A DNA stretch of 64,000 nucleotides from Candidatus Marinacidobacterium sp. GTDB taxonomy: Bacteria > Acidobacteriota > Vicinamibacteria > Marinacidobacterales > Marinacidobacteraceae. The stretch spans positions 480,001 through 544,000 of the forward strand of contig OZ244852.1 in the NCBI GenBank assembly GCA_965220965.1. Reading direction: 5' to 3'. The notes under the pieces are model-generated. The model saw only the letters and a program-made list of their open reading frames with translations. It did not search any database and was not told the DNA's origin. Made by a program: the position numbers and the translations under genes. Position 1 is the first letter of the stretch. Every line of letters starts with the position of its first letter. Shown in pieces: positions 3,016 through 27,181 of the stretch.

Positions 3016-5574
3016 TTACTCCCGCCCGAGCGCCCGGGCCTCCTCGGCGAACTTCACGTAGATCGCGCGGGCTTCATCGAACTGGGCGTAGACGTGCGCC
3101 TGCTCCGCCTCGGAGCGCCAGTAGGGCCACTCCTCCGCCATCTCGCGCAGCCGGTCGACCCAGCGGATGGAGTACTCCGCCGCCGCCAGGCTCCGCACCG
3201 GCTCGTCGCCGGCGAGCGCCCAGACCGGGTTCGTGAAGGCCTGCGGGTAGGCGCAGTCGAGCGGGCGCCGGTCCTCCGGCCCGCCCTCGGCCCGGACCAG
3301 GATCCAGGTGCTGTGGGGGATCTCGAGCGTGCCGGATCCGCTGGCCGACTTCTGGTCGGCCGAGAGTGGAACCTCGGCGACATCCTCGCCGCCGGCCACG
3401 ATCCAGACCCGGTCGAGCGGCGTGATGGAACGCACGCCGACCTTCCAGGAGACCTCGCCTCCACCCTCGGCGAGGCGCACCTCGTCTCCGGGAATCCGGT
3501 TGTTGATCCGGAAGTCGATCAGCGGGCCGCAGCTCACGAAGGCGTGACCGTTTCGCAGTCCGGCCAGCCAGGCGTCCATATCGAGGCCGGCCTCGCCGGT
3601 GTGGATGTAGGTCTTGATGGATCCCACGAGCTTGCTCCGCTGCATGTCGCTGATCGAGTCCTCACCCCCGACCGCCGTGACCCGCAGACCGTTGCTCAGC
3701 GTGGCGTACCACGGATGGAAACCGGAGCGCGAGGCGGAAGACCACTCCACCGCGTGGGTCTCGCCGAGCGCGGCGTCCACCATGTAGCCCTTGGCTCCTC
3801 CGAGGGCGCCGGGTCCGCCGTCGGGGCCGACGAGCGGATCGCTCTCGCCGAAGAAGGCGTGGACATAGCCGACGGTGGCCCCTTGCGCCTTCGCCTTGCG
3901 GAACATGTCGGTGTTCGAGGGGTAGAGGCTCTCGATCGCCGTGCCCTCGTAGCCGGTGGTGTAGGGCGAGAGCAGGTGGGTTTCGAGGTCGAACATGAAG
4001 ACATGGCCGTAGAACGGCGGCCGGTATTCCTGTCCGACGATGAGGAGCATTTCATCGGTCGAGAGCGGGTGGGCGCCGCCGCCGGGGACGAAGTACTGGT
4101 AGTCGAGGATGCGGTTGTCCTTGTTGGCGACCTGCTCGAGAACGATGTCCTGGTCCTCGGCGTCCGACATGAACATGAGGTTCTCGAGCGTGTTCCCGAG
4201 GTTGCCTCCGTAGTTCATGTGGATGTGGGTCGATCCGCTCAGCCAGCCGAGCGCCGCCATGTCGGTGATCGGCGCGAGCCGCAGGGTGGCCGCGGTGACC
4301 TCTCCCTCGCGGATCTCCAGGGTCTCTGACGCGGGTTCGAACTCGAAGCCGCGCACCGCCTCGACCTCGACCGGACCGACCGGGAGTTCGAGCCGGAAGC
4401 TCCCCGCCTGATGGAAGATGTTCTCGTCGGAGCCTCCAACCCGGGCGTAGGCGTCGGGCGGAGCGTAAAACCGGCCGTCCGAGGCGGTCAGGTGGATGCG
4501 CGAGGCGACTTCCTCTCCGGTGGAGTCGTCCACCGTCCGCACCGAGAGGACGCCGACCGGCCGTTTCCAGAGCCTCCGGGTGATCCGGACCGGCCGCCGC
4601 TCGCCGCCGTAGGTCTCGAGCAGCTCGAGCTGGGGCAGGCCGTGTTCGTTCGAGATGAACGCGATCCACTCTCCGTCGGGCGACCAGCGCGCATGGAAGG
4701 CGTCGTGGTTGAAGAACGTGAGCTTGTAGGGCGAGCCGCCGTCGGTCGGCTGGACGTACAGGTTCGCGAACTGGTCGGCCGCGCCGGCGGTCGAGGAGTA
4801 GATGAAGCGCTTCCCGTCGAGCGACACGTCGGGGCGGGTGCGGTAGAGCGACTGCTCGGCCAGCACCGTCGTCCCCTCGTCGAAGCCCTGCGCCGCCAGC
4901 GGGACGCGGATCACGTTGCCCGACCCCAGCGGGACCTCGTGGTTCGAGATCATCAGCAGCTCCCGGGAGTCGGGCATCCACGCCGGAGAGATGTGCATGT
5001 CCCAGGGCCCGAAGTAGAGCCGGTTGTTCCCGTAGTCCTCGTCCCGCGTGAGGGCGAGCTCCTCTCCCTGGAAGTCCCCGTCGGCGAACTCGCGCACGTA
5101 GACGTTGAAGTAACCCGAGGGCTTCGTCGAGACATAGGCGAGCCGCCGCCCGTCGGGCGAGAAGGCCGGGTCCATGTAGAGGAACTCGTCGTCCGCCAGC
5201 ATCCGGCTCTCACCGGTCGCCACATTCAGGACCCCCAGGCCGAAGGTCTCGTGGTTCCGGTCCACCGTGTAGACGATGAACCTCCCGTCGGGAGACCAGG
5301 TCGGCATCGAGTGGTATCCGGGACCCGCCGTGAGCTCCTCGGCGAAGCCGGTCGCGGGATCGACCCTCCAGATGGAGCCCGACATCGCGACCGCGATGCT
5401 CTCGCCGTCCGGCGCCCAGGCCGGCGCCCACGGTGTGCTCGAGGGCGACGGCGGGAAGTAGAAGTTGTGCATGTAGTTGCCGCCGTGGCGCGCCGGGGCG
5501 TAGGCGCCAGTCGGCTGGGCCGACACGGAGGCGGCCGTCAGCAGGCAGATGGCCAGGGGAAGGCGGGGCGACAT
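3016..5574 (-). CDS. Secreted TolB/PD40-repeat protein fused to CehA/McbA-type (PHP-like) metallohydrolase
   Basis: Start MSPRLPLAICLL at 5574; WSPDG repeats; GSTHIHMNYGG, GQEYRPPFYGH, GYVH and GGEDS motifs. Confidence 0.8.
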   Translation of the reverse strand: MSPRLPLAICLLTAASVSAQPTGAYAPARHGGNYMHNFYFPPSPSSTPWAPAWAPDGESIAVAMSGSIWRVDPATGFAEELTAGPGYHSMPTWSPDGRFIVYTVDRNHETFGLGVLNVATGESRMLADDEFLYMDPAFSPDGRRLAYVSTKPSGYFNVYVREFADGDFQGEELALTRDEDYGNNRLYFGPWDMHISPAWMPDSRELLMISNHEVPLGSGNVIRVPLAAQGFDEGTTVLAEQSLYRTRPDVSLDGKRFIYSSTAGAADQFANLYVQPTDGGSPYKLTFFNHDAFHARWSPDGEWIAFISNEHGLPQLELLETYGGERRPVRITRRLWKRPVGVLSVRTVDDSTGEEVASRIHLTASDGRFYAPPDAYARVGGSDENIFHQAGSFRLELPVGPVEVEAVRGFEFEPASETLEIREGEVTAATLRLAPITDMAALGWLSGSTHIHMNYGGNLGNTLENLMFMSDAEDQDIVLEQVANKDNRILDYQYFVPGGGAHPLSTDEMLLIVGQEYRPPFYGHVFMFDLETHLLSPYTTGYEGTAIESLYPSNTDMFRKAKAQGATVGYVHAFFGESDPLVGPDGGPGALGGAKGYMVDAALGETHAVEWSSASRSGFHPWYATLSNGLRVTAVGGEDSISDMQRSKLVGSIKTYIHTGEAGLDMDAWLAGLRNGHAFVSCGPLIDFRINNRIPGDEVRLAEGGGEVSWKVGVRSITPLDRVWIVAGGEDVAEVPLSADQKSASGSGTLEIPHSTWILVRAEGGPEDRRPLDCAYPQAFTNPVWALAGDEPVRSLAAAEYSIRWVDRLREMAEEWPYWRSEAEQAHVYAQFDEARAIYVKFAEEARALGRE

Positions 5575-5609
5575 GGTTCGTTCCTCCCGGAATACCGATT
5601 TCGGAAACA

Positions 5610-7688
5610 TCAGACGGGCGGATGGCCGGAGGGCGTCAAGCGCTCCCGGATCCGTGGCTGTTCGGGGTCGACTTCGAGGGAGCGCCGGAAGGCCTCGCGG
5701 GCCCTGTCCGGCTCCTGAAGCGCGAGAAAGGCTTCCCCGAGCGCATTCAGGACGCCGGGGCGCGGGGGCCCGAGCGTGGTGGCCCGCTCCAGGTGGACCA
5801 CGGCGCTCGGGTAGTTCTGTTTCAGATGGAACCCCAGGCCCAGCCCGACGGCTACCTCGTACTGGTCGCGGTGGGTGTGCTCGAGCGGGAGCAGCAGCGC
5901 GAGCGCCGCCTCGGCCCGGCCGGCGCGGAGGTGCGCGGCGGCCAGCTTCCACTTCGCCTGGGGAACCTCGGGGTCGCCTTCGGCCACCGCGCGCCGGAAG
6001 CTGGCCTCGGCCTCCGGGAAGCGGCCCTGCGCCCAGTGCTGGTCCCCGAGGACGACCTCCCGCAGCGCGGTCCGCTCCCAGTCGAAGCTGCGCCGGGCGA
6101 AGACCCCGGCGCGGGGAATCTGGCCGCGGGGCGAGACCACGACAGGCTCGCTGGCTTCAGCCAGCAGGGCGCCCGAGCCGTCGAGCAGCGCGACGCGGAA
6201 CCGGTAGCGCCCGGGGGCCACCCCCTCGAGCGGAAACGGTTCCGCGATCAGCCCAGGCTCGTCCTCGCGGACCGCTCGCCGGCGCTCCTGGACGACCTCT
6301 CCATCCAGCAGCAAGCTGAAGTCGATCTCCTGCGGAGGCGCGGCTGACAGCAACTGGAAGGCGCAGTGCAGGGTGTCGCCGATCGCGTAGACCCCGCCCG
6401 GCGCCGGGTGGATCCGGGTGGGCCCCGCCTGGAAGGTCCGGAAGGCTCCGGGGCCGTCCGGCATCGTCTCGGTCCGGAAGCCGAGCACCAGGTCGCTGAT
6501 CGCCGGTCGCCCGGGCGTCAGCTCCGGAACGCTCACCGGGCGTTCGGCCACCGTGTACTCCGAGGAGACGCGGTTGCGCAGGATCAGGATCACGTCGTAC
6601 TCGCCGGGAACGAGCGGCACGCCGTCCTGGTAGGCGAACGTCGAGCCGCGTACGCTCTCGAGCTGCTCGCCGCTCAACTGGACGAACGCCTCCTTCTCGT
6701 CGGCGAGGACGAGACGGCCGGCGGGGTCGGTCACCTCGAGGCTGGCGTCGAGCGTCGTGAAGGCGCGGGTTCCGTCGCGGTTCCGGTCGAGCGCCAGACG
6801 TTCCAGATCCACTTCCACGCTGAAGTGGAGGTAGGGGTTGCGCTGCGGCCCGAAGAGGACCGCGAAGCTGGCTTCGCTGGGAACGAAGTTGAACGAGTAC
6901 TCCGCCGAGACCCGGTTCCGGTAGCGCTCCCAGGCGTCGAGGTCGTCGTTCCGGATGGCGAGCGTCGGAGACGTCTCGATGCGCGCCAGGACGGCCGCCG
7001 AACCGAGCCCGACCGTGCCCCCCCGGAAATCGACCGGCTCGGAGGCGTCGATCGCCAGCGCGGCCCGGGCGAGCTCCGGCGAGATCTGCCGGAGCTGCTC
7101 CATGTCCTGTTCCGGGAAGGAGCGCGCCGGCCCCCGGAGCAGATCGCCCGGCACATCCGCGCCCGGCAGGAACAGACGGTAGTCGGCCGCCTCCTGCCTC
7201 CGGAAGAACACCAGATGGAAGAAGGAGGGGAGGTTGCGGGTCCGGTCGCCCTGGTAGAACCAGAGCTGCGTGTCGTAGAGGTTGTTGTGGAACTCGAAGT
7301 TCTCGATGCTCCGGGGAGGCCCGAGGAGGATGTGCATGCGCCCCCGGTCCGTTCGCCAGCCGGGAGCAAACGCTTCGCCCTGGAGTTCGCGGTTCGCGAA
7401 GTCGACGCGGCGTTCGTGCTCTTCCCTGAACTCGTTGTGCGGCGTTCCCGGGACCGGGTCGCGCTTCCGCCAGAACGCCTCGATGAAGCGCTCCCGCTCC
7501 AGCGGGCCGGAAAGCGAGGCGAAGACCTCCGCCTCCCGTTCGGTGATGATGTAGACGACCTCTTCCTCGAGCCAGCGACGGTCCTCGGCGGTCATCTCCT
7601 CCTGGCCGGCCGCGGCTGCGGGCTCGACCGCGGCCAGGACTCCGGCCGCCAGCAGCAGCGACGGCAGACGCGATGGCCGGACTTTCAG
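5610..7688 (-). CDS. GWxTD domain protein with C-terminal TPR repeats (start uncertain)
   Basis: WLEEEVVYIIT..FIEAFWRKRDP..GWRTDRGRMHILLGPP; TPR-like tail. The ORF extension to 9311 is antisense to the TonB gene. Confidence 0.88.
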   Translation of the reverse strand: MKVRPSRLPSLLLAAGVLAAVEPAAAAGQEEMTAEDRRWLEEEVVYIITEREAEVFASLSGPLERERFIEAFWRKRDPVPGTPHNEFREEHERRVDFANRELQGEAFAPGWRTDRGRMHILLGPPRSIENFEFHNNLYDTQLWFYQGDRTRNLPSFFHLVFFRRQEAADYRLFLPGADVPGDLLRGPARSFPEQDMEQLRQISPELARAALAIDASEPVDFRGGTVGLGSAAVLARIETSPTLAIRNDDLDAWERYRNRVSAEYSFNFVPSEASFAVLFGPQRNPYLHFSVEVDLERLALDRNRDGTRAFTTLDASLEVTDPAGRLVLADEKEAFVQLSGEQLESVRGSTFAYQDGVPLVPGEYDVILILRNRVSSEYTVAERPVSVPELTPGRPAISDLVLGFRTETMPDGPGAFRTFQAGPTRIHPAPGGVYAIGDTLHCAFQLLSAAPPQEIDFSLLLDGEVVQERRRAVREDEPGLIAEPFPLEGVAPGRYRFRVALLDGSGALLAEASEPVVVSPRGQIPRAGVFARRSFDWERTALREVVLGDQHWAQGRFPEAEASFRRAVAEGDPEVPQAKWKLAAAHLRAGRAEAALALLLPLEHTHRDQYEVAVGLGLGFHLKQNYPSAVVHLERATTLGPPRPGVLNALGEAFLALQEPDRAREAFRRSLEVDPEQPRIRERLTPSGHPPV

Positions 7689-7883: not shown

Positions 7884-10823
7884 ATGTCGCGATCCTTCGT
7901 TCTCGCTCTCGCTGGCGCCGTGCTCGGGACGGCGGTCGCCGCCCAGGAGTCGGCGACCCTCTCCGGTCGGGTGGAGGACACCTCGGGTGGAGCGCTGCCC
8001 GGCGTGACCGTCACCGTGACCGAGAACGCCACCGGGCGTTCGGACACCGTCGTGACCGACGCCGAGGGCGGCTTCCGGGTGGCCGCGCTTCCTCCCGGGG
8101 TCTACCGGGTGGAGGCGACGCTCTCGGGGTTCGCCAACATGCTCCTGCCCGAGATCGAGCTGCTCGTCGGGCAAAACGCCAGCGTCACGATCCAGATGGC
8201 GCTCGCCGGCGTCGAGGAGACGATCACGGTCACCGCGGAGTCGCCGCTGGTGGACCTGCTGTCCTCCGAAGTCGCCGGCAACGTGGACCGCCGGATGATG
8301 GAGGAGCTGCCGGTTCAGGGACGTAACTGGATGGAGCTCGCGCTGCTGGTGCGCGGCATCACCGCGAACGACACGAACAACAACCGTCCGGGCATCGCCC
8401 GCGACGAGAGCTTCCAGCTCAACCTGGACGGCCAGCAGATCACCCAGCAGGTGGCGAGTTCGTTCTTCGGCCAGCCCAAGTTCAGCCGGGAGGCGATCGC
8501 CGAGTTCCAGATCGTCACGAACCAGTTCGACATCACCCAGGGGCGCTCCTCCGGCGGCCAGGTGAACGCGATCACCCGGTCCGGGACGAACGACTTCACG
8601 ATGAGCGCCTACGGCTACTTCCGGGACGACCGCTTCAACGCCGAGGACCATGTTGCCGAGCGCGTGCTTCCGTTCGAGAACCAGCAGATTGGCGGCGTCA
8701 TAGGCGGCCCGATCGTCGAGGACCGGATCCACTACTTCCTGTCCTACGAATACGAGCGGCAGCCGGGCAGCGTCTTCGTGGAGCCGCCCCGCCTCCCGGG
8801 ACAGGAGTGGGTGTTCGACACGCCGCAATACCAGAACAGCTTCACCGCCCGGGTGGACCAGACGGCGTCCGACAACGATCAGCTCTCCTACCGCATGTCC
8901 TACTGGGACTTCGAGACCGCGTTCGACATGACGAGCACGCAGCATCCCTCGAACGCGCGGGCGCGGACGCAGGACTCGCTGAACGCCCTCGCGACCTGGA
9001 CGCGCCGGTGGAACGACGAGGTCTTCACCGAGCTCAAGATCGGCTACAACGGCTTCGAATGGTCGAACCTGCTGGCCGACACCTCGGTCGGGGGTTGCGA
9101 CCAGTCCTTCGGAAACCAGCAGATGGATCAGACCACCTGCCAGCCCAACTACGTCTTCCCGGGGATCACCTTCGGCGGTCCGCGGAACTTCCCCCAACTG
9201 TTCACGCAGGATCTCGGTTCCGCGCGCTTCCAGTTGAACTGGAGCCGCGAGAACCACGACTGGAAGATCGGCGGCGAGTTCCTCGGCTGGGTTGACGGCG
9301 GTGAGTGGCACCTGCTCGAGCGCGGCGAGTTCATCTTCAACTCGAGGCCGGACGACCTCGACCGCCGGTTCCCGCAGGAGTGCGCCTTCAACCCCTCGTG
9401 CTGGGACGTCAGCGGGCTCGATGCGACGGTGGCCCGCTTCAGCCAGAACGTCGGCAACTGGGTCATCGACATCCCGCGGCCCACGGTCGCCTTCTGGGTG
9501 GGAGACACCTGGCGCATGTCGGAGGAACTGGTCGTGAACTTCGGCCTCCGCTACGACCTCGACTGGGGCGCGCTGGCTCCTCCCGGCAACGACATCATGA
9601 CGCCCTTCGCGGGCGCCAGTTCAGGCCGGAGCGCCGGCGACTCGCTCTACAAGTGGGACATCCGGGATCTGGACAACTTCGCGCCGCGCGCGGGTTTCGC
9701 GTATGACGTGGGCGGGACCGGCGATCTGGTCATCCGCGGCGGATCGGGCATCTACCACACGATCAGCGTTTCGAACGTTACGTTCAGCCAGCAGTCATTC
9801 AACGGGCAGCGGATCCTGGTGAACTCGTTCCCGAACGACGGGCTTCCCGGTTTCCTCCAGGACCCGACGCGCGGGGTGACGCCCGCGCAGATCCTGAATG
9901 GGGAGGTTCCGGTGCCGCCGCAGGCGCCGCGGACCATCGCCCACGACTTTCAGATGCCCTACACCTGGCAGACTTCGATCGGCTTCCAGAAGCAGTTTGG
10001 TCTGCTGTGGGGTTTCGAGTCCGACCTGCTCTACTGGCACGAATACAACACGCCCCGCGCCACCGATCCGAACCAGATCTTTGATCCGGTGACGGGTTAC
10101 AACCTCAATATCGGCGAGTTTGGCCGGCTGGACCCCAAGTTCACGCAGATCCGTTACATCGAGAGCACCGGCGAACAGGATTACCTCGCGCTCTCGAGTG
10201 GCCTGCGCCGACGGTTTGGTGACAACTTCCAGGTCAACCTGACCCATACCATCATGTTCTGGAAGGAGGACGACACCACCGGCTGGTTCAACTTCCCGAA
10301 CAACACCTTCGATCCGGACTCCGAGTGGGCCACCTCGCTCGACTTCCAGCGAAACACGTTCCGGATCAACGGCGTCTACCAGTTGCCCTGGGACTTCACG
10401 GTCTCGGGCGCCTACTTCTACGGCTCCGGGAACCGGTTCGCCACCTCGATCGGAGGACGCCCCTTCGGCAAGACGGCGAGCACCAACCGGCTGAACCTGG
10501 GTGACCCGATTACAGTGAATCCCGACATGCTGTCGCGATTCGACGGGCCGTCCACGATCGGCTCCGGTCCCGGAAACGAGGCGCCGCGAAACGCGCTCAT
10601 GGGCGAGGCGATCCACAAGGTGGACTTCCGGCTGACCAAGTCGCTGGTGCTGGGAGACATCCGGATCTCGGCCATCGCCGAGGTGTTCAACCTGCTGAAC
10701 CACGCCAACCACGGCGCCTACAACGGGACGATCGACTCGAGCACGTTTGGGGAGCCCCGTCAGGTGACCTCCACGGCCTACGGGCCGCGCGCCGCCCAGT
10801 TCGCCGTCCGCATCGAGTACTGA
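7884..10823 (+). CDS. TonB-dependent receptor (Oar-type, N-terminal carboxypeptidase-regulatory-like domain)
   Basis: Signal peptide, LSGRVEDTSGGALPGVTVT, LPVQGRNW, NFAPRAGFAYD, C-terminal QFAVRIEY; GGGAG before ATG 7884. Confidence 0.92.
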   Translation: MSRSFVLALAGAVLGTAVAAQESATLSGRVEDTSGGALPGVTVTVTENATGRSDTVVTDAEGGFRVAALPPGVYRVEATLSGFANMLLPEIELLVGQNASVTIQMALAGVEETITVTAESPLVDLLSSEVAGNVDRRMMEELPVQGRNWMELALLVRGITANDTNNNRPGIARDESFQLNLDGQQITQQVASSFFGQPKFSREAIAEFQIVTNQFDITQGRSSGGQVNAITRSGTNDFTMSAYGYFRDDRFNAEDHVAERVLPFENQQIGGVIGGPIVEDRIHYFLSYEYERQPGSVFVEPPRLPGQEWVFDTPQYQNSFTARVDQTASDNDQLSYRMSYWDFETAFDMTSTQHPSNARARTQDSLNALATWTRRWNDEVFTELKIGYNGFEWSNLLADTSVGGCDQSFGNQQMDQTTCQPNYVFPGITFGGPRNFPQLFTQDLGSARFQLNWSRENHDWKIGGEFLGWVDGGEWHLLERGEFIFNSRPDDLDRRFPQECAFNPSCWDVSGLDATVARFSQNVGNWVIDIPRPTVAFWVGDTWRMSEELVVNFGLRYDLDWGALAPPGNDIMTPFAGASSGRSAGDSLYKWDIRDLDNFAPRAGFAYDVGGTGDLVIRGGSGIYHTISVSNVTFSQQSFNGQRILVNSFPNDGLPGFLQDPTRGVTPAQILNGEVPVPPQAPRTIAHDFQMPYTWQTSIGFQKQFGLLWGFESDLLYWHEYNTPRATDPNQIFDPVTGYNLNIGEFGRLDPKFTQIRYIESTGEQDYLALSSGLRRRFGDNFQVNLTHTIMFWKEDDTTGWFNFPNNTFDPDSEWATSLDFQRNTFRINGVYQLPWDFTVSGAYFYGSGNRFATSIGGRPFGKTASTNRLNLGDPITVNPDMLSRFDGPSTIGSGPGNEAPRNALMGEAIHKVDFRLTKSLVLGDIRISAIAEVFNLLNHANHGAYNGTIDSSTFGEPRQVTSTAYGPRAAQFAVRIEY

Positions 10824-15031: not shown

Positions 15032-16441
15032 TCAGTCCTCCGGATTGCGCGCGGGTTTCGCGCTCTCGTTCGGCCCTGGACGGATGCTGCCGAGAGTGAA
15101 CATCCCGACGGGACCCTCGACCAGCGGATCGAGTCCCGTCGCCTTCGCGAAGACTCTCGGGTCGCTCGTCCCGACCGCGCACGGGGCGAGGCCGAGGGCG
15201 GTCGCGGCCAGATAGAGCGTCTGGTAGAGGACGCCGGCGTCCCGCAGGATCAGCCCGTAGCCGATCGAGTGGTACCGGCGCATCATCCGGGCGAAGCGGG
15301 CCGCCACCACCAGCACGACCTGGGGGGGCGCCCGGACCCCGAGCGAGGCGCTGGCCAGCTCGATGAGCTGTCGTGATTCCGGGGTGGGTCCGGCGATCCG
15401 GCCCAGCTCGTGCCGCGTCGCATCGTAGTGATAGAGGCCGGCGTCGAGGCCCCGGCAGGTGCGGATGACCGGATAGATCTCGAGCTCGTAGCGGGCGCCC
15501 GCGCCCGGATACGGTGGCCCCTCGGTCGGTCCGGTTCGGGGCGCCCGAGCCCGGTCACCGCCCGCCGGGAAGGAGCGGGGCCGCACCCTCGCCGCCAGAT
15601 CGAGCAGCCGACCCAGGTCTTCCGCGGTCATCGGTCGCTCATCCGCCCACTCGCGGAGCGAGCGGCGGCGCGCCATCAGCGCGCCGAGCGCGTCCGGACC
15701 GGAAGCCCCCCCTCCGGTGGCGAGCGGGATCCCCGGGCCCGTCCCGGGCCCCCGGGGCGTCGAGGCCGGCGACGGGGCATCGAGGTTCGGCGGTTTCTTG
15801 CCGACGGGATCGTGGGTCCAGCCGATGCTCTGATGGAAGTGGAAGTGGAGGTCGTGGAAGTCCCAGTCGGCGAGCGCTTCCGCCGGATGCGTTCCGGGCG
15901 CCGCCTCCAGGAAACCCGCCGCGTCGAGGGCCCTTCGCACGACCGGCGATTCCAGCGCCCGAAGGTCGGGGAGCGCGAATCGCGCGCCGACCAGCGGTGA
16001 TTCGAGGAGCCAGCCTCCTTCGCCTCGCGGCCGCAGGCAGGCCATCCGGTGCAGGCCCCGCTCCGGATCCGGTTCGCGGGCCGCCAGCGCCGGAACGAAC
16101 TCCCTCCACTGCGGCGACACGACAGCGCGTTCGGCGTCCCCGTCCATGAGCGGGAACTCGATGGCGCCGAGCCGCGTCAGCCGCTGCAGCGTGAGCAGGA
16201 CTTCCACGGCGCGCTCGACGCCGCCCGCGCCGATGGCGTGATCCCTGAGTTCCGCCAGCGAGGCGCCCGCGCTCAACCGGGCGGCCACCAGCCGGAACGC
16301 GTCCGGCGTCTTCAGGCGGCCGACGGTCCGTCCCTTCGGCCGCAGTTCGACGGCGTCCCGGTCTCCGGTTTCGCCGAGGTCGACCTCCCGCGAAAGCCGA
16401 AGATGGATCGCCGGCTCGTTCGTCAGATCAGGGAACGACAT
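15032..16441 (-). CDS. SagB/ThcOx-family FMN-dependent azoline dehydrogenase with N-terminal extension
   Basis: RRRSLR, YPGAGARYELEIYP, GLYHYD, DAGVLYQTLYLAATALGLAPCAVG; AAGGAG RBS before ATG 16441. Confidence 0.9.
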   Translation of the reverse strand: MSFPDLTNEPAIHLRLSREVDLGETGDRDAVELRPKGRTVGRLKTPDAFRLVAARLSAGASLAELRDHAIGAGGVERAVEVLLTLQRLTRLGAIEFPLMDGDAERAVVSPQWREFVPALAAREPDPERGLHRMACLRPRGEGGWLLESPLVGARFALPDLRALESPVVRRALDAAGFLEAAPGTHPAEALADWDFHDLHFHFHQSIGWTHDPVGKKPPNLDAPSPASTPRGPGTGPGIPLATGGGASGPDALGALMARRRSLREWADERPMTAEDLGRLLDLAARVRPRSFPAGGDRARAPRTGPTEGPPYPGAGARYELEIYPVIRTCRGLDAGLYHYDATRHELGRIAGPTPESRQLIELASASLGVRAPPQVVLVVAARFARMMRRYHSIGYGLILRDAGVLYQTLYLAATALGLAPCAVGTSDPRVFAKATGLDPLVEGPVGMFTLGSIRPGPNESAKPARNPED

Positions 16442-16497
16442 GGCTGAGGCGCTCCTTTGAGGAGCGCCGGAAAGAGGCGAGACCGCCACCGCGCGAA

Positions 16498-16506: not shown

Positions 16507-16529
16507 CGGCGTCGCCTGCGGAGGGCGGA

Positions 16530-16754
16530 GTGAACCAGAAGGAAGGCGGCCCGGATGACGGCCGGTATGTGGATCTGGTCGCCCGCTACTACGGCGATCC
16601 GGAGTTCCGCGCCCGGATGGACCGGGACCCGGCGGCCGTGATGAAGGCCGAGGGATTCGATGTCCCGGAGGACGCCACGATCCGGCTGCTGTTCGATCGG
16701 GCGGATCTCATGAACATCGTGCTGCCCGCCCCCGGTCCGGATCCTCCGAAGTGA
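16530..16754 (+). CDS. Stand-alone NHLP leader-like peptide with no GG site and no core
   Basis: LVARYYGDPEFRARMDRDPAAVMKAEGFDVPEDATIRLL..NIVLP matches the nitrile-hydratase-like leader pattern; stop overlaps the ycaO start (GTGA). Alternative start ATG 16497. Confidence 0.8.
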   Translation: MNQKEGGPDDGRYVDLVARYYGDPEFRARMDRDPAAVMKAEGFDVPEDATIRLLFDRADLMNIVLPAPGPDPPK

Positions 16755-19129: not shown

Positions 19130-19399
19130 TCAGTAGACGCAGTTGCAACCGCAGTAGTTGCAGTTGCCCCCGGAGACCGAATCGAGTTGCTCCCCGGTCA
19201 ACCGGGGGGAGGGCGGCAGGATCAGGTGCCCCTGACTCGCCGTGTCCTCGTGCACCCGGATCTCGAATCCGTCGGGGATCGTGATCTCGAACTCCTCTTC
19301 GATCACGCTCTTCGGATCCTGAGTCAGGCGGGCGCGGAAGCCGGCGTCGGCTTCCGCCCTGGCGATCAGGTGGGCGCGCATCTCGTTCGCGGATTTCAT
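19130..19399 (-). CDS. NHLP-family RiPP precursor 1; core NCNYCGCNCVY
   Basis: 78-aa NHLP leader ending LDSVSGG, 11-aa core; GGAGGA RBS. Confidence 0.93.
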   Translation of the reverse strand: MKSANEMRAHLIARAEADAGFRARLTQDPKSVIEEEFEITIPDGFEIRVHEDTASQGHLILPPSPRLTGEQLDSVSGGNCNYCGCNCVY

Positions 19400-19468: not shown

Positions 19469-20347
19469 TCAGGCGCCCTGGAAGTCGGCGCGGGCATACG
19501 CCTTGGCCGCCACCCCTCCGCGCGGGTCGATGTTCGTCTTGAAGTGATGCAGGATGACGCGGAGGACTCGCATGCCCGCGCCGGTCAGCGTGAGTTGCGG
19601 GAGCAGCGGAGCTTTCAGTCTGCGCGCCTTGCCGGGGAGACACCAACCCTCGGCGACGAAGAAGTCGACGAGTCCGACCCAGGCGGCTGACGACTCGTCC
19701 GTCAGCGCGCGATGGGCGAAGAGTTCGATCCCCAGGCCGGGTGAGATCCGCCCATCCGTGACATCCACCATCAGGTTGCACTCCGGACTCAGCTCGCCGG
19801 TCAGGGCGGGGGGCGCCTGACGGGCGTCCAGCCGCGGCGGCAGCGCCCCGCTCCAGCCGATGCGCTCCAGGAACGCGGGGGCGTCGGCCCAGGGAACGCG
19901 CGCCGCCACCCGCATCGCGCGGGGCCGGCGCCCCGGCATGGCGCCGAGATGCGCAAGCAGCCCGGCGGGGGGCAGCGCCGCGACGATCCGGCTGACCAGC
20001 GCGCTCTCCCGTTCTTCCGGCGGCCAGCCGGCGGCGCGCGCGAGTTCGGGGACAAGGACGTCCACCCCGGCCCGGTCCGGCGGAAGGTGCAGGTTGGCGA
20101 GGAAGATGCCGGGCGCCCGCTCGGGCGCGGCGATGAGGTCGTACTCGAGGATGATCTCGGGCGCGAGCTGGCCGAGCGCGGATCCCGTCCGCTCCATTTC
20201 ACCCAGGAGTCCGGCGACGCCCGGCCAGCCGCTGTCCCGGGTGACCCACCCGGCGAAGGCGCTTCCGGGACGGACCCGCACAAACAGGTCCGCCGCCGGC
20301 GCCGGATCGGCGAGGCGGAACTCGAAGCCGAACGGATCCTCGGCCAC
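19469..20347 (-). CDS. Uncharacterised RiPP-associated enzyme, possibly ABBA-fold prenyltransferase-like (true start probably further upstream)
   Basis: FGFEFRL..D, ILEYD, LMVDV, GIELF, HHFK..AKAY. Lies between two precursors; the frame stays open to about 20480. Confidence 0.6.
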   Translation of the reverse strand: MAEDPFGFEFRLADPAPAADLFVRVRPGSAFAGWVTRDSGWPGVAGLLGEMERTGSALGQLAPEIILEYDLIAAPERAPGIFLANLHLPPDRAGVDVLVPELARAAGWPPEERESALVSRIVAALPPAGLLAHLGAMPGRRPRAMRVAARVPWADAPAFLERIGWSGALPPRLDARQAPPALTGELSPECNLMVDVTDGRISPGLGIELFAHRALTDESSAAWVGLVDFFVAEGWCLPGKARRLKAPLLPQLTLTGAGMRVLRVILHHFKTNIDPRGGVAAKAYARADFQGA

Positions 20348-20480: not shown

Positions 20481-20741
20481 TCAGTAATGGCAACTGCAGA
20501 CGTTCGTGCCTCCCGCCACCGAGTCGAGCTGATCCGAGCTCAGCCGGGGCGAGGGGGGCAGGACGAGGTGCCCCTCGGTCGCGGTGTCCTGGTGGACCCG
20601 GACCTCGAATCCGTCCGGGATCGTGATTTCGAACTCCTCTTCGATCACGGACTTCGGATCCTGCGCCAGGCGGGCGCGGAAGCCGGAGTCGGCCTGGGCC
20701 TTCGCGATCAGGTGGGCGCGCATCTCGTGAGCGGACTTCAT
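20481..20741 (-). CDS. NHLP-family RiPP precursor 2; core TNVCSCHY
   Basis: Last 86 aa of the spurious 1033-aa ORF: MKSAHEMRAHLIAKA..LDSVAGG-TNVCSCHY; GGAGGA RBS before ATG 20741. Confidence 0.93.
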   Translation of the reverse strand: MKSAHEMRAHLIAKAQADSGFRARLAQDPKSVIEEEFEITIPDGFEVRVHQDTATEGHLVLPPSPRLSSDQLDSVAGGTNVCSCHY

Positions 20742-20770: not shown

Positions 20771-23686
20771 TCAGAGCTTCGGGTCCGGGGAAAACGCCAT
20801 CTGGCGGGTGGCCATCCGTCGGAAAGGGCCGTCCTCGGCCATCAGCGCCTGATAGTTCCCGGACTGGACGACGCGCCCTGACTCGAGCACATGAATGCGG
20901 TCCGCCCGGCGGATGGTGGAGAGACGGTGCGCGATGACGATCCGGGTCGCAGCCGATGACTCGATGCCCGCCATCGCCTGGGCCTGGCTCTTGCGGTCCA
21001 GCCAGCTCGTGGCTTCGTCGAGAAACAGGATGCGCGGCTTGCGCACGAGCGCGGCGGCGAGCGAGATGCCCTGGGTCTGCCCCCCGGACAGCACGGCCGC
21101 GTCGCCCACGCTGGTGTGCATCCCCATCGGCATGGCCGCGATGTCCCGCGCCACGCCCGCCAGCTTCGCCGCCCCCCAGGCGTCGGTGAGGTCCAGGTCC
21201 TCCGTCCCGACGATGTTCTCCAGAATGCTGCCCGGCATCAGGCCCTGCTCCTGCATCACGACCCCCACGTGACGCCGCACCGCGCGCCGATCGATGTGCG
21301 CGAGGTTCCGGCCGTCGTAGTAGATGGCGCCGGCTGACGGCTCGTCGAGGCCGAGCGCCAGCCGGATGAGCGTGCTCTTGCCGGCGCCGGACTCCCCGAC
21401 GATCGCGACGAACTCCCCCGGCCGGACGTGGATCGAGACGCCCTGGAGGATCTCGCGCGCCCCCGGCGCATACTTGAACCGCACGTTGTCGAACCGGATC
21501 TCGCCGCTCAGCTCGACGGGAGGGGCGTTCGCCGTCGGAGTCGATTCCGGAACGCGGGCCAGCACCGGCCCCACCTGCTCGCACGAGGGCCCGATCTCGG
21601 CGATCGTGTCGAACACCTGCCCCAGCGCGATGACCGAGCCGAACAGGACCATGGCGGCCAGGTAGGCGACGAGGAAGTCCCCGGTCGCCTCCGCTCCGCG
21701 CTCCTGCCGGCTCGCCAGCAGGAAGATGGCGGCGCCGGCCAGCGCCGGGAGGGCGGCGAAGAGCGCCTGGAGGTGTTCCTGGAGCGAGGAAACCCGGACT
21801 TCGGCCTCCTTCTGTTCCCGGTAACGCCGCGCCCAGGCGGCGTAGGCGAACCCTTCCGCGCCGCTCTGCCGCAGCCGGACGATTCCGGCCACGAACTGCA
21901 GCAGGTCCCGCGTCTGTCGACGGGCGGCCTCGAGTCGCCGGCGCTGCGCGCGGGTCTGGACCGCGCCGAGTCCGCCAGCGAGCAGGAGCGGGGCGAGACC
22001 GAAACCGAGGACGAGCAGGCCGAACCAGACGTCGAACAGGAAGAGCAGACAGACCGCCGGCAGAAGCTGAAACGGCGCGAGCAGGGTCGCCGCCACCGAG
22101 CCGCCGACCTGGTCGCGGAGCCGCTGGAAGACGGTGGCGCGAACCGCCGAGTCGCCGGCTGTCGTATGCGGATCCACCCGGCTCCGGACCAGGCGATCCC
22201 ACAGCGCCGCCGTGAGCCGGCTGGAAACCCGCGCCTCGAGGCGCATCGCGGCCGCCCCACGGAGGACGCCGGCGGCGCCGGCGACCAGGGCCAGAGGGAG
22301 CAGGCCGGCGGTGAAGGCGATCAGGATGCCGGGCTGGCCGGTGGGGATCACCCGCTCGATCAGCGCGCCGAGCGTGACCGGCGGCGCCATCGCCAGAAGG
22401 CCGGCGACCACCCCCGCCAGCGCAAGGGCGAGCGCGTCCCCCAGCAGGTTGTGTTTCGCCAGCCCCCCGAGGTCGCGCCATCCGGCCGGACGGCGAGACG
22501 GCAATCCGGGGTAGGGGAGCCAGGCCATCTCCTCCAGGCCTGCGGCCACGCCGGCATTCACCGTTACGGAACTCCCTGAGGCCGGATCCACCGCCCGGTA
22601 GCCACCCGTGCGGGGAATCAGCGCGATCGGGCGCCCGTCCTCTCGACCGCGGCCCAGCATGGCTCCGCTGTCGCTTCGCCACCAGGCGTCGTCCCTCCGC
22701 AGCCGCACCCGGCGGGCCTGAACGCCGGTCGCCCGGAAGACCTGCTCGGCGCCGGGTTCCTCCCCGCCCTTCAGCGGGGGAGCGCGGAACTCCATGCCGC
22801 TGTGGCGACCCACGGCTTCGAGGGCCGCCATCAGCGGACGCCGCTCGCGCGCCGCGGCGGGGCCGTGGAACAGGGCGGCGAGATGCGCCTTCCCCTCGGC
22901 CTCGGCCTCCCGGCCGCGATGGGACGCCTCGACCTGCAGGTTGGCGAAGTCCACCGCCCGGAGCCGCCGGGTGAGGCCCTCGGCGCCCAGGATGAGCTCG
23001 TGGAAGCGCGCCAGCGCCGACCCCAGCAGCAGTTCCGGGGCGAGTTCCCGGGAGGCGATGGCATGGGTCTCCACGCCGGCCGCAAGCGTTACCCAGGCGT
23101 CCCTGGTGATGGCCGTCGGGGCGCCGTCCGGCACCGGCTCGAGGTCGAGGAACAGGGATCCGGGTATGGCGTCCGGCCCGATCCAGACGACGCCGCGGGC
23201 TGCGGCGATCCGGCCTTCCTCCACCGCTCCCTCGGACCCCGGCGTGAGCCGCGCCCCGATCCGGGGCATGGGCCGGATGGCGCTCGCCACCCCGGCGGCG
23301 AACGGACGGATCCAGGCGTCGACCTGGGCGGCCAGCGCCTCGCCTCCGTCGCGCCTTCGGGCCTCGGCGAGGAGGCGATCCACCGCGATCCGGCGGACCG
23401 TGGTCCCGGCGATCCCCTTGGCGTGGAGGCCGAGCGAGGCGCCCTTGCCGCCCTCCGGGACGGCCCCGAAGGCCAGCCGACCGGGGAGGACGCGGAGCGC
23501 ATGCCGGAACCCGGATCGGGCGCCATCGGTCGCCAGGTCGACGACGAAGACGTCCAGCCCGCCCGATTCGACGAGCCAGCAATACCGCGGATCGTCGAGG
23601 TCGAGCGGTCGATTCGAGGCCGCTGTCCGCGGCGCCGAGCTCGAAGCCGCCAGCTCGGTGAGCCAGGCCGGCGCCGTATCAGTCAT
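20771..23686 (-). CDS. NHLP bacteriocin export ABC transporter, permease/ATPase subunit
   Basis: N-terminal CWLVESGGLDVF domain, WWRSDSGAMLG, TM domain, GESGAGKST, LSGGQ, LDEAT, IAHRL. Confidence 0.92.
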   Translation of the reverse strand: MTDTAPAWLTELAASSSAPRTAASNRPLDLDDPRYCWLVESGGLDVFVVDLATDGARSGFRHALRVLPGRLAFGAVPEGGKGASLGLHAKGIAGTTVRRIAVDRLLAEARRRDGGEALAAQVDAWIRPFAAGVASAIRPMPRIGARLTPGSEGAVEEGRIAAARGVVWIGPDAIPGSLFLDLEPVPDGAPTAITRDAWVTLAAGVETHAIASRELAPELLLGSALARFHELILGAEGLTRRLRAVDFANLQVEASHRGREAEAEGKAHLAALFHGPAAARERRPLMAALEAVGRHSGMEFRAPPLKGGEEPGAEQVFRATGVQARRVRLRRDDAWWRSDSGAMLGRGREDGRPIALIPRTGGYRAVDPASGSSVTVNAGVAAGLEEMAWLPYPGLPSRRPAGWRDLGGLAKHNLLGDALALALAGVVAGLLAMAPPVTLGALIERVIPTGQPGILIAFTAGLLPLALVAGAAGVLRGAAAMRLEARVSSRLTAALWDRLVRSRVDPHTTAGDSAVRATVFQRLRDQVGGSVAATLLAPFQLLPAVCLLFLFDVWFGLLVLGFGLAPLLLAGGLGAVQTRAQRRRLEAARRQTRDLLQFVAGIVRLRQSGAEGFAYAAWARRYREQKEAEVRVSSLQEHLQALFAALPALAGAAIFLLASRQERGAEATGDFLVAYLAAMVLFGSVIALGQVFDTIAEIGPSCEQVGPVLARVPESTPTANAPPVELSGEIRFDNVRFKYAPGAREILQGVSIHVRPGEFVAIVGESGAGKSTLIRLALGLDEPSAGAIYYDGRNLAHIDRRAVRRHVGVVMQEQGLMPGSILENIVGTEDLDLTDAWGAAKLAGVARDIAAMPMGMHTSVGDAAVLSGGQTQGISLAAALVRKPRILFLDEATSWLDRKSQAQAMAGIESSAATRIVIAHRLSTIRRADRIHVLESGRVVQSGNYQALMAEDGPFRRMATRQMAFSPDPKL

Positions 23687-25886
23687 CGCCCACCAGGTCG
23701 CGGTATAGGCCCTCGACCGCGATCAGCTCGTCGTGCGAGCCGGTCTGGACCGGCCGGCCCGAGTCGAGGACCACGATCAGGTCGCTGTCGCGAATCGTCG
23801 AGAGCCGGTGAGCGATGATGAGGCAGGAACACCCCCGGCGGCGGAGCGCGTCGTCGATCTCCTGTTCGGTGAGCACATCGAGCCCGCTGGTCGCCTCGTC
23901 CAGAACCAGAACCGAGGGCTCGTTGACCAGCGCGCGGGCGATCTCGAGCCGCAGCCGCTCCCCGCCGCTGAAGTTGCGCCCCGCCTCCTCCACCGGCGTC
24001 TCGTAGCCGAGCGGCCGGCGCAGAATCTCCTCGTGGATCCGGGCGTCGCGCGCCGCCGCCACCACCAGTTCGTCCGGCGCGGCGCTGTTCCACAGCGTGA
24101 GGTTCTCCCGGACGGTCGCCGCGAACAGGAACGGGCTCTGGTCCACCATCGAGACCGAGTTCTGGAGCACCGCCGACGGAATCCGGCGACGGGGAACGCC
24201 GTCGAAACAGACCTCTCCCGACCAGGGCTCGTGAACGCCGGCCACCAGCGAGGCGAGAGTCGATTTGCCCGACCCGATGGATCCCACGATCGCCACCCGC
24301 TGCCCGGGTTCGATCGTCAGCGAGAAGTTCTCGATCAGCGGCGGGCGGTTTCGCTGGAAGCCGAAGGTGACATCGCGCAGCTCGATCCTTCCGGCGAGCC
24401 GGACTCGTCCGGCGAGGGTGGCGACCCCCGGACCCTCACTCTCGGCAGCCGCCGGGTTCTCCTCGTCGCCCGAGACCACCAGGACGTCGTTCAGGCGCTG
24501 GAGCTGTCCCTCGAGCGACTGGATCGTGTCCGAGAACTGCGTCAACTGACATACCGGGCGGAGGAAGTTGCCGGCCACGACGTAGAAACCAACCAGCGTT
24601 CCGATGGTCATGTCGCCGTTCATGGCGCGCCAGCCGCCGAAACCGAAGACCGCCGCGGCGCCCAGGATCAGGACGAAATCCGGCAGCGCCGTGGTGACGT
24701 GCCCGAGCTCGGCGAACTCCTGGCGCGCCTTCAGTTCCCGCGCCTGGTGGCCGGCTGCGCGCGAAAAGAAGCGGTTCTCCGAAGCGGTGGCCTGGAGCTG
24801 GGTCAGGCGGCGCAGTCCGGACGTGACGTATCCCGCCAGCTCTCCCTGGGCGCGCGCGAATCCCGGGCTGAGTTCCGCCCGCCGATTGCGCACCAGCCGC
24901 GCGAGCGCCAGCGCCAGGATGGCGAGCGCGGCCACCGCCACCGCCGACGGGACGTCGAAGACGAACATAAGCGCGAGGAACGAGAGCCCGAGCGCCACAT
25001 CGGCGAAGAGCGACACGAGCTGGGTCGCGCTGACGGTGGCCACGCCGTCCACCAGCCGCATGCGATCCACCAGGTCGCCGGCCAGCCGGCGGCTGAAGAA
25101 GGACATCGGACGCCGGAGCAGTCGCGTGAAATAGCGGTCGGCGTACTCGACCGACATCCGCACTCCCATCCGCCGCAGCGTTCGCATCTGGAGCCAGGTG
25201 AGCAGGTAGACCAGCGCGGCGACGCCTCCGGCCGCCGCGATCAGCGCCCCGGACCGCGCGGCCTGGCCGCCGATCAGCACCTGATCCACGAAGAGGGCGA
25301 GGAGCAGCGGCAGGGCGAGGCCGGAGGCCGCGAGGAACAGCGAATAGAGCGCCGCGAGTCCGAGCGAGGGTCGATGCCCGGAGAACCAGGGCCAGAGCTG
25401 CCGCAGCACGCCCGACGACTGGCCGCCCTGACGAAACTCCGGCGTCGCCTCCGGGATCAGGAGCACCCCGGTGAACGCCGTGTCGAAGTCCTTCGCCCCG
25501 ATGGTCCGGTGTCCGCTCGCCGGGTCGTTGATGTGGAAGCCGTCGCGGTCAGCGCCCTCGAGAACGACGAAGTGGTTGAACTCCCAGAAGAGGATCGACG
25601 GAACCGGCGAGGCGTCCAGTTGGGAAGGTTCCCGGCGCCATCCGGTGGTCTTCAGCCCGTAGGTCGAGGCGGCGCGGACGATGTCCCCGGCGGTGCAGCC
25701 GTCGCGTCCGGTCCCGCACGCCTCCCGCATCTCCTCGAGGGTGGCCCGGTAGCCGAAGTGGGCCAGCACGATGCCGAGACAGGCGGCGCCGCAGTCGGAG
25801 GCCTCCTGCTGAAGGAAGACCGGTGTGCGGACCCGCCTTCGCCGGCGAAACGGCGACAGCCGCCTCACCGCGTCGCTCAGCTTCAC
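23679..25886 (-). CDS. NHLP bacteriocin export ABC transporter with C39 peptidase
   Basis: GTG 25886; QQEASDCGAACL, WEFNHFVVLEG, INDPASG (C39 Cys/His/Asp); GSIGSGKST, FSGGE, LDEAT. Confidence 0.94.
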   Translation of the reverse strand: MKLSDAVRRLSPFRRRRRVRTPVFLQQEASDCGAACLGIVLAHFGYRATLEEMREACGTGRDGCTAGDIVRAASTYGLKTTGWRREPSQLDASPVPSILFWEFNHFVVLEGADRDGFHINDPASGHRTIGAKDFDTAFTGVLLIPEATPEFRQGGQSSGVLRQLWPWFSGHRPSLGLAALYSLFLAASGLALPLLLALFVDQVLIGGQAARSGALIAAAGGVAALVYLLTWLQMRTLRRMGVRMSVEYADRYFTRLLRRPMSFFSRRLAGDLVDRMRLVDGVATVSATQLVSLFADVALGLSFLALMFVFDVPSAVAVAALAILALALARLVRNRRAELSPGFARAQGELAGYVTSGLRRLTQLQATASENRFFSRAAGHQARELKARQEFAELGHVTTALPDFVLILGAAAVFGFGGWRAMNGDMTIGTLVGFYVVAGNFLRPVCQLTQFSDTIQSLEGQLQRLNDVLVVSGDEENPAAAESEGPGVATLAGRVRLAGRIELRDVTFGFQRNRPPLIENFSLTIEPGQRVAIVGSIGSGKSTLASLVAGVHEPWSGEVCFDGVPRRRIPSAVLQNSVSMVDQSPFLFAATVRENLTLWNSAAPDELVVAAARDARIHEEILRRPLGYETPVEEAGRNFSGGERLRLEIARALVNEPSVLVLDEATSGLDVLTEQEIDDALRRRGCSCLIIAHRLSTIRDSDLIVVLDSGRPVQTGSHDELIAVEGLYRDLVGDD

Positions 25887-26917: not shown

Positions 26918-27181
26918 CTACATCGTGACGGCGCACATGCAGGAGATGCCGCCCGAGACGCCGTCGAGCTGCTCCTCGCTCAGTTGGGGCGAGGGCGGGA
27001 GGACCAGGCGCCCCTCGGTGGAGCTGTCCTCGTGCTCCGGCGCCTCGAACCCGTCGGGGAGGGTGATGTCGAACTCCTCCTCGATCGCGGCCTTCGGATC
27101 CTGGGTCCGACGAGCGCGAAAGACGGGATCCTCTCCCGCCTTGGCGATGAGGCGGGCGCGCATCTCGGTCACGGACTTCAT
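26918..27181 (-). CDS. NHLP-family RiPP precursor 3; core ISCMCAVTM
   Basis: MKSVTEMRARLIAKA..LDGVSGG-ISCMCAVTM; GGGAGGA RBS before ATG 27181. Confidence 0.9.
   Translation of the reverse strand: MKSVTEMRARLIAKAGEDPVFRARRTQDPKAAIEEEFDITLPDGFEAPEHEDSSTEGRLVLPPSPQLSEEQLDGVSGGISCMCAVTM

Follow-up and report, generated by a model that had tools for sequence, protein, structure and literature searches.

In the usual logic for peptides that are ribosomally synthesized and then post-translationally modified (RiPPs), a leader carried in cis binds the modifying enzymes, and RiPP recognition element (RRE) domains act as its readers. In engineered LynD-type systems, a leader supplied in trans or as a fusion activates the cyclodehydratase through an RRE-binding strand, while PqqD and the lasso-peptide B1 proteins are stand-alone RREs with a winged helix-turn-helix fold. 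Nitrile hydratase alpha, to which the leaders of the NHLP family (TIGR03793) are related, is described as a four-layer alpha-beta-beta-alpha protein. NHLP leaders are themselves folded, with a helical bundle at residues ~6-42, a short sheet at 51-65 and a disordered tail at 66-86 (PMC12537861), and their L(X)4L motif occupies -12 to -7 relative to the cleavage site (PMC10858898). For the leader of MprE7 and the YcaO protein MprC, helix 1 of the NHLP domain contacts the RRE, L(X)4L is necessary for RRE engagement, and turnover depends on the L(X)4L strand as well as on one face of helix 1 (PMC12455567). NHLP-Burk genes (TIGR03795) form tandem pairs, fused in some genera, and from the fusions Haft 2010 (PMC2887384) argues that the members act together. 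Here we describe a 74-amino-acid (aa) gene from Candidatus Marinacidobacterium sp. that encodes the folded part of an NHLP leader with no core behind it. The gene lies just upstream of a ycaO gene in a stretch of 64,000 nucleotides of contig OZ244852.1, the whole of which is called the window below.

A conserved clade of core-less NHLP-fold proteins

The open reading frame (ORF) at 16530-16754 is a real gene of a conserved core-less NHLP-fold clade. A preliminary description of this DNA, made from its letters, had reported an NHLP-like ORF that stops after IVLP and carries no C-terminal GG, cysteine or core, and this was borne out: the product (C-terminus ...NIVLPAPGPDPPK) stops eight residues past IVLP, has no cysteine and one threonine, and its sole GG is N-terminal (residues 6-7). 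An alternative in-frame ATG at 16497 would give 85 aa and has no Shine-Dalgarno box. The three real NHLP leaders of the genome all lie inside the window, and in their precursors (RLTGEQL, RLSSDQL and QLSEEQL) the leucines of L(X)4L stand at exactly -12 and -7, as in the leader end of precursor 1 (...PRLTGEQLDSVSGG). The core-less protein has no L(X)4L at -12 to -7 (C-terminus ...IVLPAPGPDPPK), no GG-type cleavage site and no core with modifiable residues, and its sequence shows no evident signal peptide or membrane segment. As the motifs needed by a substrate are missing, it is established that the protein is no substrate for YcaO or for the C39 exporter. A short C-terminal core was considered and rejected, the tails being unconserved across homologues and that of the window's protein having no Cys, Ser or Thr. 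The TGA of the gene overlaps GTG 16751 of ycaO, which encodes a 776-aa fused cyclodehydratase, and this GTGA overlap, also claimed earlier, is real, because GTG 16751 is the sole ATG, GTG or TTG in frame 5' of the invariant D32/V36/P39 block of the YcaO alignment.

The window's core-less protein attains the cut-off of no NCBIfam or Pfam model. TIGR03793 matches profile positions 9-60 of 77 (E 5.4e-7; 29.4 bits, cut-off 50.9), PF02979 scores 25.6 bits (cut-off 27.2) and TIGR01323 29 bits (cut-off 249.85). Identity to two of the three window leaders is 28-29%. The AlphaFold2 model contains three helices (10-22, 24-32, 34-40) and a beta-hairpin (strands 53-56 and 60-63), with a mean predicted local distance difference test score (pLDDT) of 68 and 54-62 in the hairpin, and its sole credible fold matches are two NHLP leaders, MprE7 (PDB 8TB1, TMq 0.60) and DprE2 (PDB 9CJX, TMq 0.54); the family profile finds 8tb1 with E 2.8e-17. 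The protein therefore shares the fold of the TIGR03793 leaders and a clear homology with them, and it sits in the same kind of cluster (YcaO, SagB and NHLP exporter), but it stops where the leader's disordered tail begins, falls below the family cut-off and forms a clade of its own with a YYGDPEF/LLFNT signature. It is the structured nucleus of an NHLP leader by itself. Although its TIGR03793 bits are sub-threshold, its domain is homologous to nitrile hydratase alpha (PF02979, TIGR01323), from which it differs in being one 74-aa module rather than a two-repeat chain of ~200 aa and in lacking the CxxCSC metal motif; no beta-subunit gene was noticed near the core-less gene, where no systematic search was made. 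An 85-aa PDB chain named 'Nitrile hydratase, alpha chain' (6lk7_A, one of four chains in the entry) gives a weak match to the core-less profile (E 0.22) and may be another stand-alone module.

Homologues end at the same place. A word-indexed search returned four proteins at E<=0.01 among five candidates, the window's protein counted, and the three relatives (74-81 aa, 57-60% identity) each terminate just past VLP. Scanning species genomes for a pattern turned up four loci, one in a Nitrospirales-labelled metagenome-assembled genome (MAG) and three in two Alphaproteobacteria-labelled MAGs, encoding proteins that finish 2-10 residues after VLP. A seven-member profile searched against 1.84e9 representatives gave 2650 matches at E<=1e-3, of which 225 reach E<=1e-10 and 2 reach E<=1e-30; its top small matches all carry YYGDPEF...VLP, and among the 150 matches listed the carriers of YYGDP[ED]F...LLFNT...HIVLP are 56-120 aa long with a C-terminus 3-19 residues past VLP. 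A profile of the homologues finds the window ORF with E 8e-31 to 2e-36, so the likeness is not chance. All 25 aligned members finish 3-19 residues past VLP without a core, and all 25 match TIGR03793 (best E 1.1e-11; bits were set against the cut-off for member 1 only); all 17 genes read in 16 loci finish 2-10 residues past VLP. A 25-sequence profile gave bimodal scores across 401 genomes of the window's class: ten matches, spread over eight genomes, reach 107-125 bits, and the next one stands at 59.5 bits. The clade is defined here by YYGDP[ED]F...VLP, a score of ~89 bits or higher with the A4 profile and a C-terminus within ~20 residues past VLP; no curated model exists for it, and the window's protein belongs to it with 107-108 bits. 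About 37 distinct members were found, while a metagenome scan for the family added only two short contigs.

A FastTree phylogeny built from 313 distinct NHLP domains gathers the 37 core-less tips into one clade (support 0.925), which also holds seven other tips: two fragments or frameshifted forms, P0077, the two modules of P0010, and the core-bearing precursors P0065 and P0120 with their ARYYGD-type leaders. Because a few basal members of the clade still bear a core (P0065, P0120 and the second ORF of locus L041), the family probably descends from one leader subtype that lost everything past the hairpin, and was kept from then on. By the Nei-Gojobori method, over 56 ungapped codons of 17 genes (136 pairs), the median ratio of nonsynonymous to synonymous change (pN/pS) is 0.43, and omega is 0.18-0.53 in pairs with the window's gene. 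This analysis, which the preliminary description had proposed, indicates moderate purifying selection; the pN/pS values are probably inflated by GC-rich codon bias. Among 8000 scored candidates, no clade form fused into a longer protein was seen at E<=1e-10, which is weak evidence. The only fused clade form seen is P0010 (491 aa), in which two core-less-type modules precede ~350 aa without a Pfam match, a C-terminal part that could point to a partner.

A truncated precursor was rejected, as the end point is conserved family-wide in a single clade with pN/pS below 1. Homologues that normally carry GG and a core had been named in advance as the sign of such a truncation, and none of the 25 aligned homologues has a core, so the protein's status as a conserved non-substrate was upheld. 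No description of a core-less or stand-alone NHLP protein was found in a literature search that covered material other than supplementary files, and the clade is established as previously unnamed.

Predicted pairing with the precursor leader

The reading we favor, with a probability of about 0.5, is that the core-less protein is a trans-acting partner of structured NHLP leaders. The stand-alone module, a three-helix and beta-hairpin unit with nothing after it, would bind in trans the leader domain of the three cluster precursors, through a hairpin-on-hairpin contact and one face of helix 1 that together would form a pseudo-symmetric two-module unit. The published RRE-contacting face of the precursor's helix 1 and its L(X)4L strand would stay largely free, so the paired leader could pass to YcaO/SagB and to the C39-ABC exporter. 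The effect of pairing may be to stabilize the leader or present it to YcaO/SagB, or to time maturation relative to export.

This reading draws on a three-chain complex prediction in which the core-less protein (alignment of 25 rows) was scored as the partner of full-length YcaO (15 rows) and precursor 1 (6 rows). The complex scored 0.64 (runs 0.64, 0.68 and 0.61) against 0.34 for the best of three controls and passed a mark that 58 of 80 solved complexes reach, as do 2 of 110 mismatched pairs, the runs agreeing in at least 70% of contacts with a partner pLDDT of at least 72. The predicted interface comprises residues 4, 8, 11-12, 15-16, 22, 25-26, 29 and 44-65 of the precursor and residues 17, 20-21, 34, 38, 46 and 48-67 of the core-less protein, with the tightest pairs between precursor strand 57-61 and partner 51-56 and between precursor 47-50 and partner 61-65. 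None of the residues listed in the partner's interface in this prediction belongs to YcaO. The score was 0.00 in both controls with a replaced partner. The control at 0.34 replaced YcaO and kept partner and precursor, with 102 confident contacts remaining, and is therefore no negative control for that pair. A multimer prediction had been proposed in the preliminary description, which listed subunit, activator, inhibitor and precursor-pairing partner as possible roles; the part of the proposal concerning the precursors found a contact with the leader domain of precursor 1, the part concerning the enzyme found none with YcaO, and of the roles listed the precursor-pairing partner is the one that the prediction favors.

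When mapped to the family profile, both chains use positions 25, 28, 29 and 42 together with the hairpin, so the predicted contact is pseudo-symmetric, and the family-specific YY (Y20, Y21) and the hairpin sit in the predicted interface. The profile positions that correspond to the RRE-contacting residues of MprE7 (19, 22, 23, 26 and 29) overlap the partner face only at 29, which makes a ternary complex with the enzyme conceivable.

Two NHLP modules are found joined in cis in related proteins. Among 153 proteins examined, 100 contain two modules; past the second there are usually L(X)4L, GG and a core, whereas the N-terminal module, like the core-less protein, has none of these; the two-module proteins (among P0013-P0153) are 106-244 aa long, and no description of this architecture was found beyond the NHLP-Burk fusions of Haft 2010. 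A model of one of them, P0020, has a mean pLDDT of 83 and a predicted TM score (pTM) of 0.73, and its modules, both at pLDDT 91-98, fold far better than the isolated core-less model with its hairpin at 54-62. The P0020 model aligns with nitrile hydratase alpha chains across both repeats, over ~150-177 columns. The core-less profile matches the nitrile hydratase alpha chain 1v29_A twice, at residues 65-119 and 137-188, which makes this chain a tandem of the NHLP module. When the modules of fused forms were scored against the core-less clade, module 1 had the higher score in 58 of the 100 and module 2 in the other 42, so that neither is closer. The pairing of modules in cis in fused double-NHLP proteins, in nitrile hydratase alpha and in the NHLP-Burk systems makes a heterodimer in trans plausible. 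In the fused double-NHLP and NHLP-Burk systems two modules are used jointly, but here the partner is a separate core-less gene and would serve several precursors; moreover, both members of an NHLP-Burk pair are described as precursors (PMC2887384), unlike the core-less protein.

Further removed are two arrangements in which part of the recognition machinery is separate. LynD-type trans leaders likewise place a leader-like element apart from the core, but the core-less protein is natural, has no RRE-binding strand and is predicted on the precursor rather than on the enzyme. Stand-alone RREs are small accessory proteins of RiPP clusters that bind the precursor leader, as the core-less protein would, but its model has three helices and a hairpin and no winged helix-turn-helix, and its NHLP fold is homologous to the leader rather than to an enzyme domain.

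Gene neighborhoods and the window cluster

The locus survey covered 17 core-less genes in 16 loci, 14 of them with long flanks. The nearest recognized downstream gene on the same strand is ycaO for four of the 17 genes (window, L073, L076, L079), sagB for one (L077), a precursor for four (L001, L041, L074 and the first copy in L004) and an HlyD gene for one (L003); in the remaining seven cases, nothing recognizable or a convergent gene follows. The stop/start overlap with ycaO occurs in the window only, with gaps of 41 to ~200 nucleotides elsewhere, so it is established as a local feature and not a family trait. Translational coupling to ycaO, which had been put forward as a key trait, and conservation directly upstream of homologous ycaO genes, which was to be checked, thus did not hold across the family. 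Of the 14 long-flank loci, 12 have a core-bearing NHLP precursor no farther than 10 kb away.

Orthologs were counted in the 401 class genomes at identities of at least 48% for YcaO and at least 45% for SagB. A YcaO ortholog is present in 29 genomes, a SagB ortholog in 10 and the core-less gene in eight, and all eight carry both enzymes. The two genomes with SagB and no core-less gene are G726, a 280-contig assembly, and G668, in which SagB has an internal stop and the YcaO match is truncated. Five more distant YcaO/SagB pairs (35-44% identity; G471, G526, G612, G754, G495) are also without the core-less gene. All 11 carriers of the core-less gene that were checked, the three MAG genomes among them, have orthologous YcaO and SagB. 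In two Alphaproteobacteria MAGs, the core-less genes adjoin precursors and exporter genes and are 78-850 kb distant from those of the enzymes. The core-less gene belongs to the YcaO and SagB multi-precursor type of NHLP cluster, and, given the varied gene order and the 19 genomes with YcaO only, it is neither a universal companion of YcaO nor tied to one position. An obligate YcaO subunit was rejected, since the gene is absent from 19 of the 29 genomes with a YcaO ortholog and gene order is variable.

The two Alphaproteobacteria MAGs (G764 and G765, behind L002-L004; 3.4-3.7 Mb) contain 50 and 60 NHLP-profile matches scattered along the chromosome but just two genes for YcaO and one for SagB apiece, a layout that resembles a prochlorosin-like combinatorial library for azole peptides. 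In L004, a unit of ~2.8 kb consisting of a precursor, a 537-aa AAA-ATPase-like gene (AAA_22/AAA_16) and a core-less NHLP gene is duplicated (5363-6976, second copy ~8200-9800); its two core-less copies differ with a dS of 0.14 and an omega of 0.18.

Eight loci of a SagB-less sister type were fetched. They have a single precursor with core LCCCW or, in a second subtype, LCCCG, a Cys-rich C-terminus that we take to recall prenylation motifs, and a homologue of the window's 292-aa protein adjoins ycaO. Four of the eight encode a protein in which an N-terminal NHLP-like domain is fused to a squalene-hopene-cyclase-like domain (~430 aa, alpha/alpha toroid; NHLP part includes ...VLPPPPRLSAAE), adjoining or near ycaO (L080 7282-8799 (+), L083 4967-6322, L084 11192-12592 (-), L085 6962-8785). 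It looks like a leader-like domain joined to a tailoring enzyme.

The features of the window are collected in Table 1. In the fused YcaO protein, the winged-helix domain covers residues 42-113, and sagB is transcribed divergently from the core-less gene. The core-less gene clusters with an NHLP export system (TIGR03794/03796/03797); exporter genes are also carried by L003, L004, L039 and L077. The start of the C39 exporter subunit was assigned at MFLQQEASDCGAAC. The window's HlyD-like gene (285 aa, compared with ~415 aa in L003/L004) matches TIGR03794 over positions 3-109 of 421 only and may be shortened or mis-delimited. The 292-aa protein is a conserved component of these YcaO clusters without an assigned family; its homologues, of 292-375 aa, occur at L001 14677-15513, L073 11556-12452, L080 11307-12434 and equivalent places.

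Table 1 Features of the core-less gene and its cluster in the window
Feature	Coordinates	Strand	Details
SagB-type FMN dehydrogenase, 469 aa from ATG 16441	15032..16441	-	TIGR03605 139.9 bits
GGAGG Shine-Dalgarno box	16520..16524	+	5 nt 5' of GTG 16530; read from sequence
Core-less NHLP-fold gene, 74 aa	16530..16754	+	GTG 16530 to TGA 16752-16754
Fused winged-helix (RRE)/E1-like/YcaO cyclodehydratase, 776 aa	16751..19081	+	TIGR03604 253.6, TIGR03882 117.6, PF02624 319 bits
NHLP precursor 1	19130..19399	-	TIGR03793 67.6 bits; core NCNYCGCNCVY
Conserved 292-aa protein	19469..20347	-	no Pfam/NCBIfam match
NHLP precursor 2	20481..20741	-	TIGR03793 66.2 bits; core TNVCSCHY
NHLP-system ABC exporter subunit, no peptidase domain	20771..23686	-	TIGR03797 614.9 bits, below 709.4 cut-off
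NHLP-system ABC exporter subunit with C39 peptidase domain	23679..25820	-	TIGR03796 808.1 bits, below 853.3 cut-off
Short HlyD-like adaptor, 285 aa	25883..26740	-	weak TIGR03794 and TIGR01730 matches
NHLP precursor 3	26918..27181	-	TIGR03793 52.9 and 53.6 bits (cut-off 50.9); core ISCMCAVTM

Weighing the explanations

Several points weigh against a partner of the leaders. The heterodimer is predicted only, by one model-based calculation, and the calibration of the mark that it passed holds only roughly for a job with three chains and custom alignments. The same cis-paired proteins that make a heterodimer plausible also mean that the pass may reflect a memory of the nitrile hydratase alpha fold, in which case it would report likeness and not binding, and the TM score of the double-NHLP model to nitrile hydratase alpha is 0.43-0.48, below 0.5. 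The MprE7 leader is monomeric in solution up to 523 uM by small-angle X-ray scattering (PMC10858898), so NHLP modules do not pair as a rule, and many NHLP systems work without such a partner, including 19 sampled genomes with a YcaO ortholog and neither SagB nor the core-less gene. No precursor is found within 10 kb of the core-less gene in two long-flank loci (L002, L072), and the neighbors of these orphan copies (hydrolase, DinB, alcohol-dehydrogenase-like and ABC proteins) are uninformative. The stoichiometry in the two Alphaproteobacteria MAGs is awkward, with 2-3 core-less genes alongside 50-60 NHLP genes. Finally, in the window's class the core-less gene tracks SagB as closely as it tracks precursors, and an enzyme partner is therefore conceivable.

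That co-occurrence, with the gene in eight of the 10 sampled genomes that have an orthologous SagB and in none of the 391 without, keeps alive a rival in which the core-less protein is a mimic of the leader that docks on the enzymes, either on the RRE of YcaO or on the N-terminal part of SagB, and acts as an allosteric activator, a competitive inhibitor or an adaptor that would bring SagB to YcaO with its bound precursor. The presence of both orthologous enzymes in every carrier genome checked, the stop that overlaps the ycaO start in the window, the position directly upstream of ycaO in four copies and of sagB in one, and the contact of NHLP helix 1 with the RRE in MprE7/MprC (PMC12455567) all speak for docking of this kind. 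It is nevertheless unlikely in our judgment, as the protein lacks the L(X)4L strand that MprE7/MprC requires besides helix 1 (PMC12455567), its predicted interface includes no YcaO residue, the gene is missing both from 19 of the 29 genomes with a YcaO ortholog and from those with distant YcaO/SagB pairs, and in the two Alphaproteobacteria MAGs it sits beside precursors and exporters at 78-850 kb from the enzymes. The same observations told against the dedicated YcaO subunit or activator that the preliminary description had listed. A role at the exporter, where the protein would gate or compete for leader recognition by the C39-ABC/HlyD complex, or in protection of the producer is improbable. 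The L003 copy does lie directly upstream of HlyD, C39-ABC and ABC genes, both L004 copies are beside exporter genes and the window cluster contains an NHLP exporter set, but the protein offers no GG or L(X)4L for recognition by a C39 domain, has no evident signal peptide or membrane segment, and in most loci of the class its gene stands among precursors and enzymes, away from the exporter. It is very improbable that the ORF is a non-functional remnant, left after a precursor lost its 3' end, or is kept only for the translation-initiation region of ycaO that it carries; core-bearing basal members and tails that finish in G, AG or GG would fit a remnant, but the ~37 members from several bacterial groups share an end point and family motifs, pN/pS is below 1, and outside the window the gene is separated from ycaO or has other neighbors.

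A conserved gene for a folded leader domain only, if its product binds real leaders as predicted, would add a class of RiPP component and would account for half or more of the close NHLP relatives being two-domain. We hold only tentatively the wider idea that NHLP modules are general pairing units, used in cis in double-NHLP proteins, in trans by the core-less partner and in fusion with a tailoring enzyme in the squalene-cyclase-like proteins of the SagB-less clusters. On that idea, the core-less protein would rank as the first dedicated partner of a structured leader to be met in nature; it would complete a two-module unit like nitrile hydratase alpha, and this unit, not the bare leader, would be what YcaO/SagB or the exporter recognizes. 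Pairing would also bear on leader engineering for combinatorial azole peptides, and co-expression of the partner may be needed for heterologous production from clusters of this type. If the pairing is a model artefact, core-less ORFs of this family are still not to be annotated or mined as RiPP precursors.

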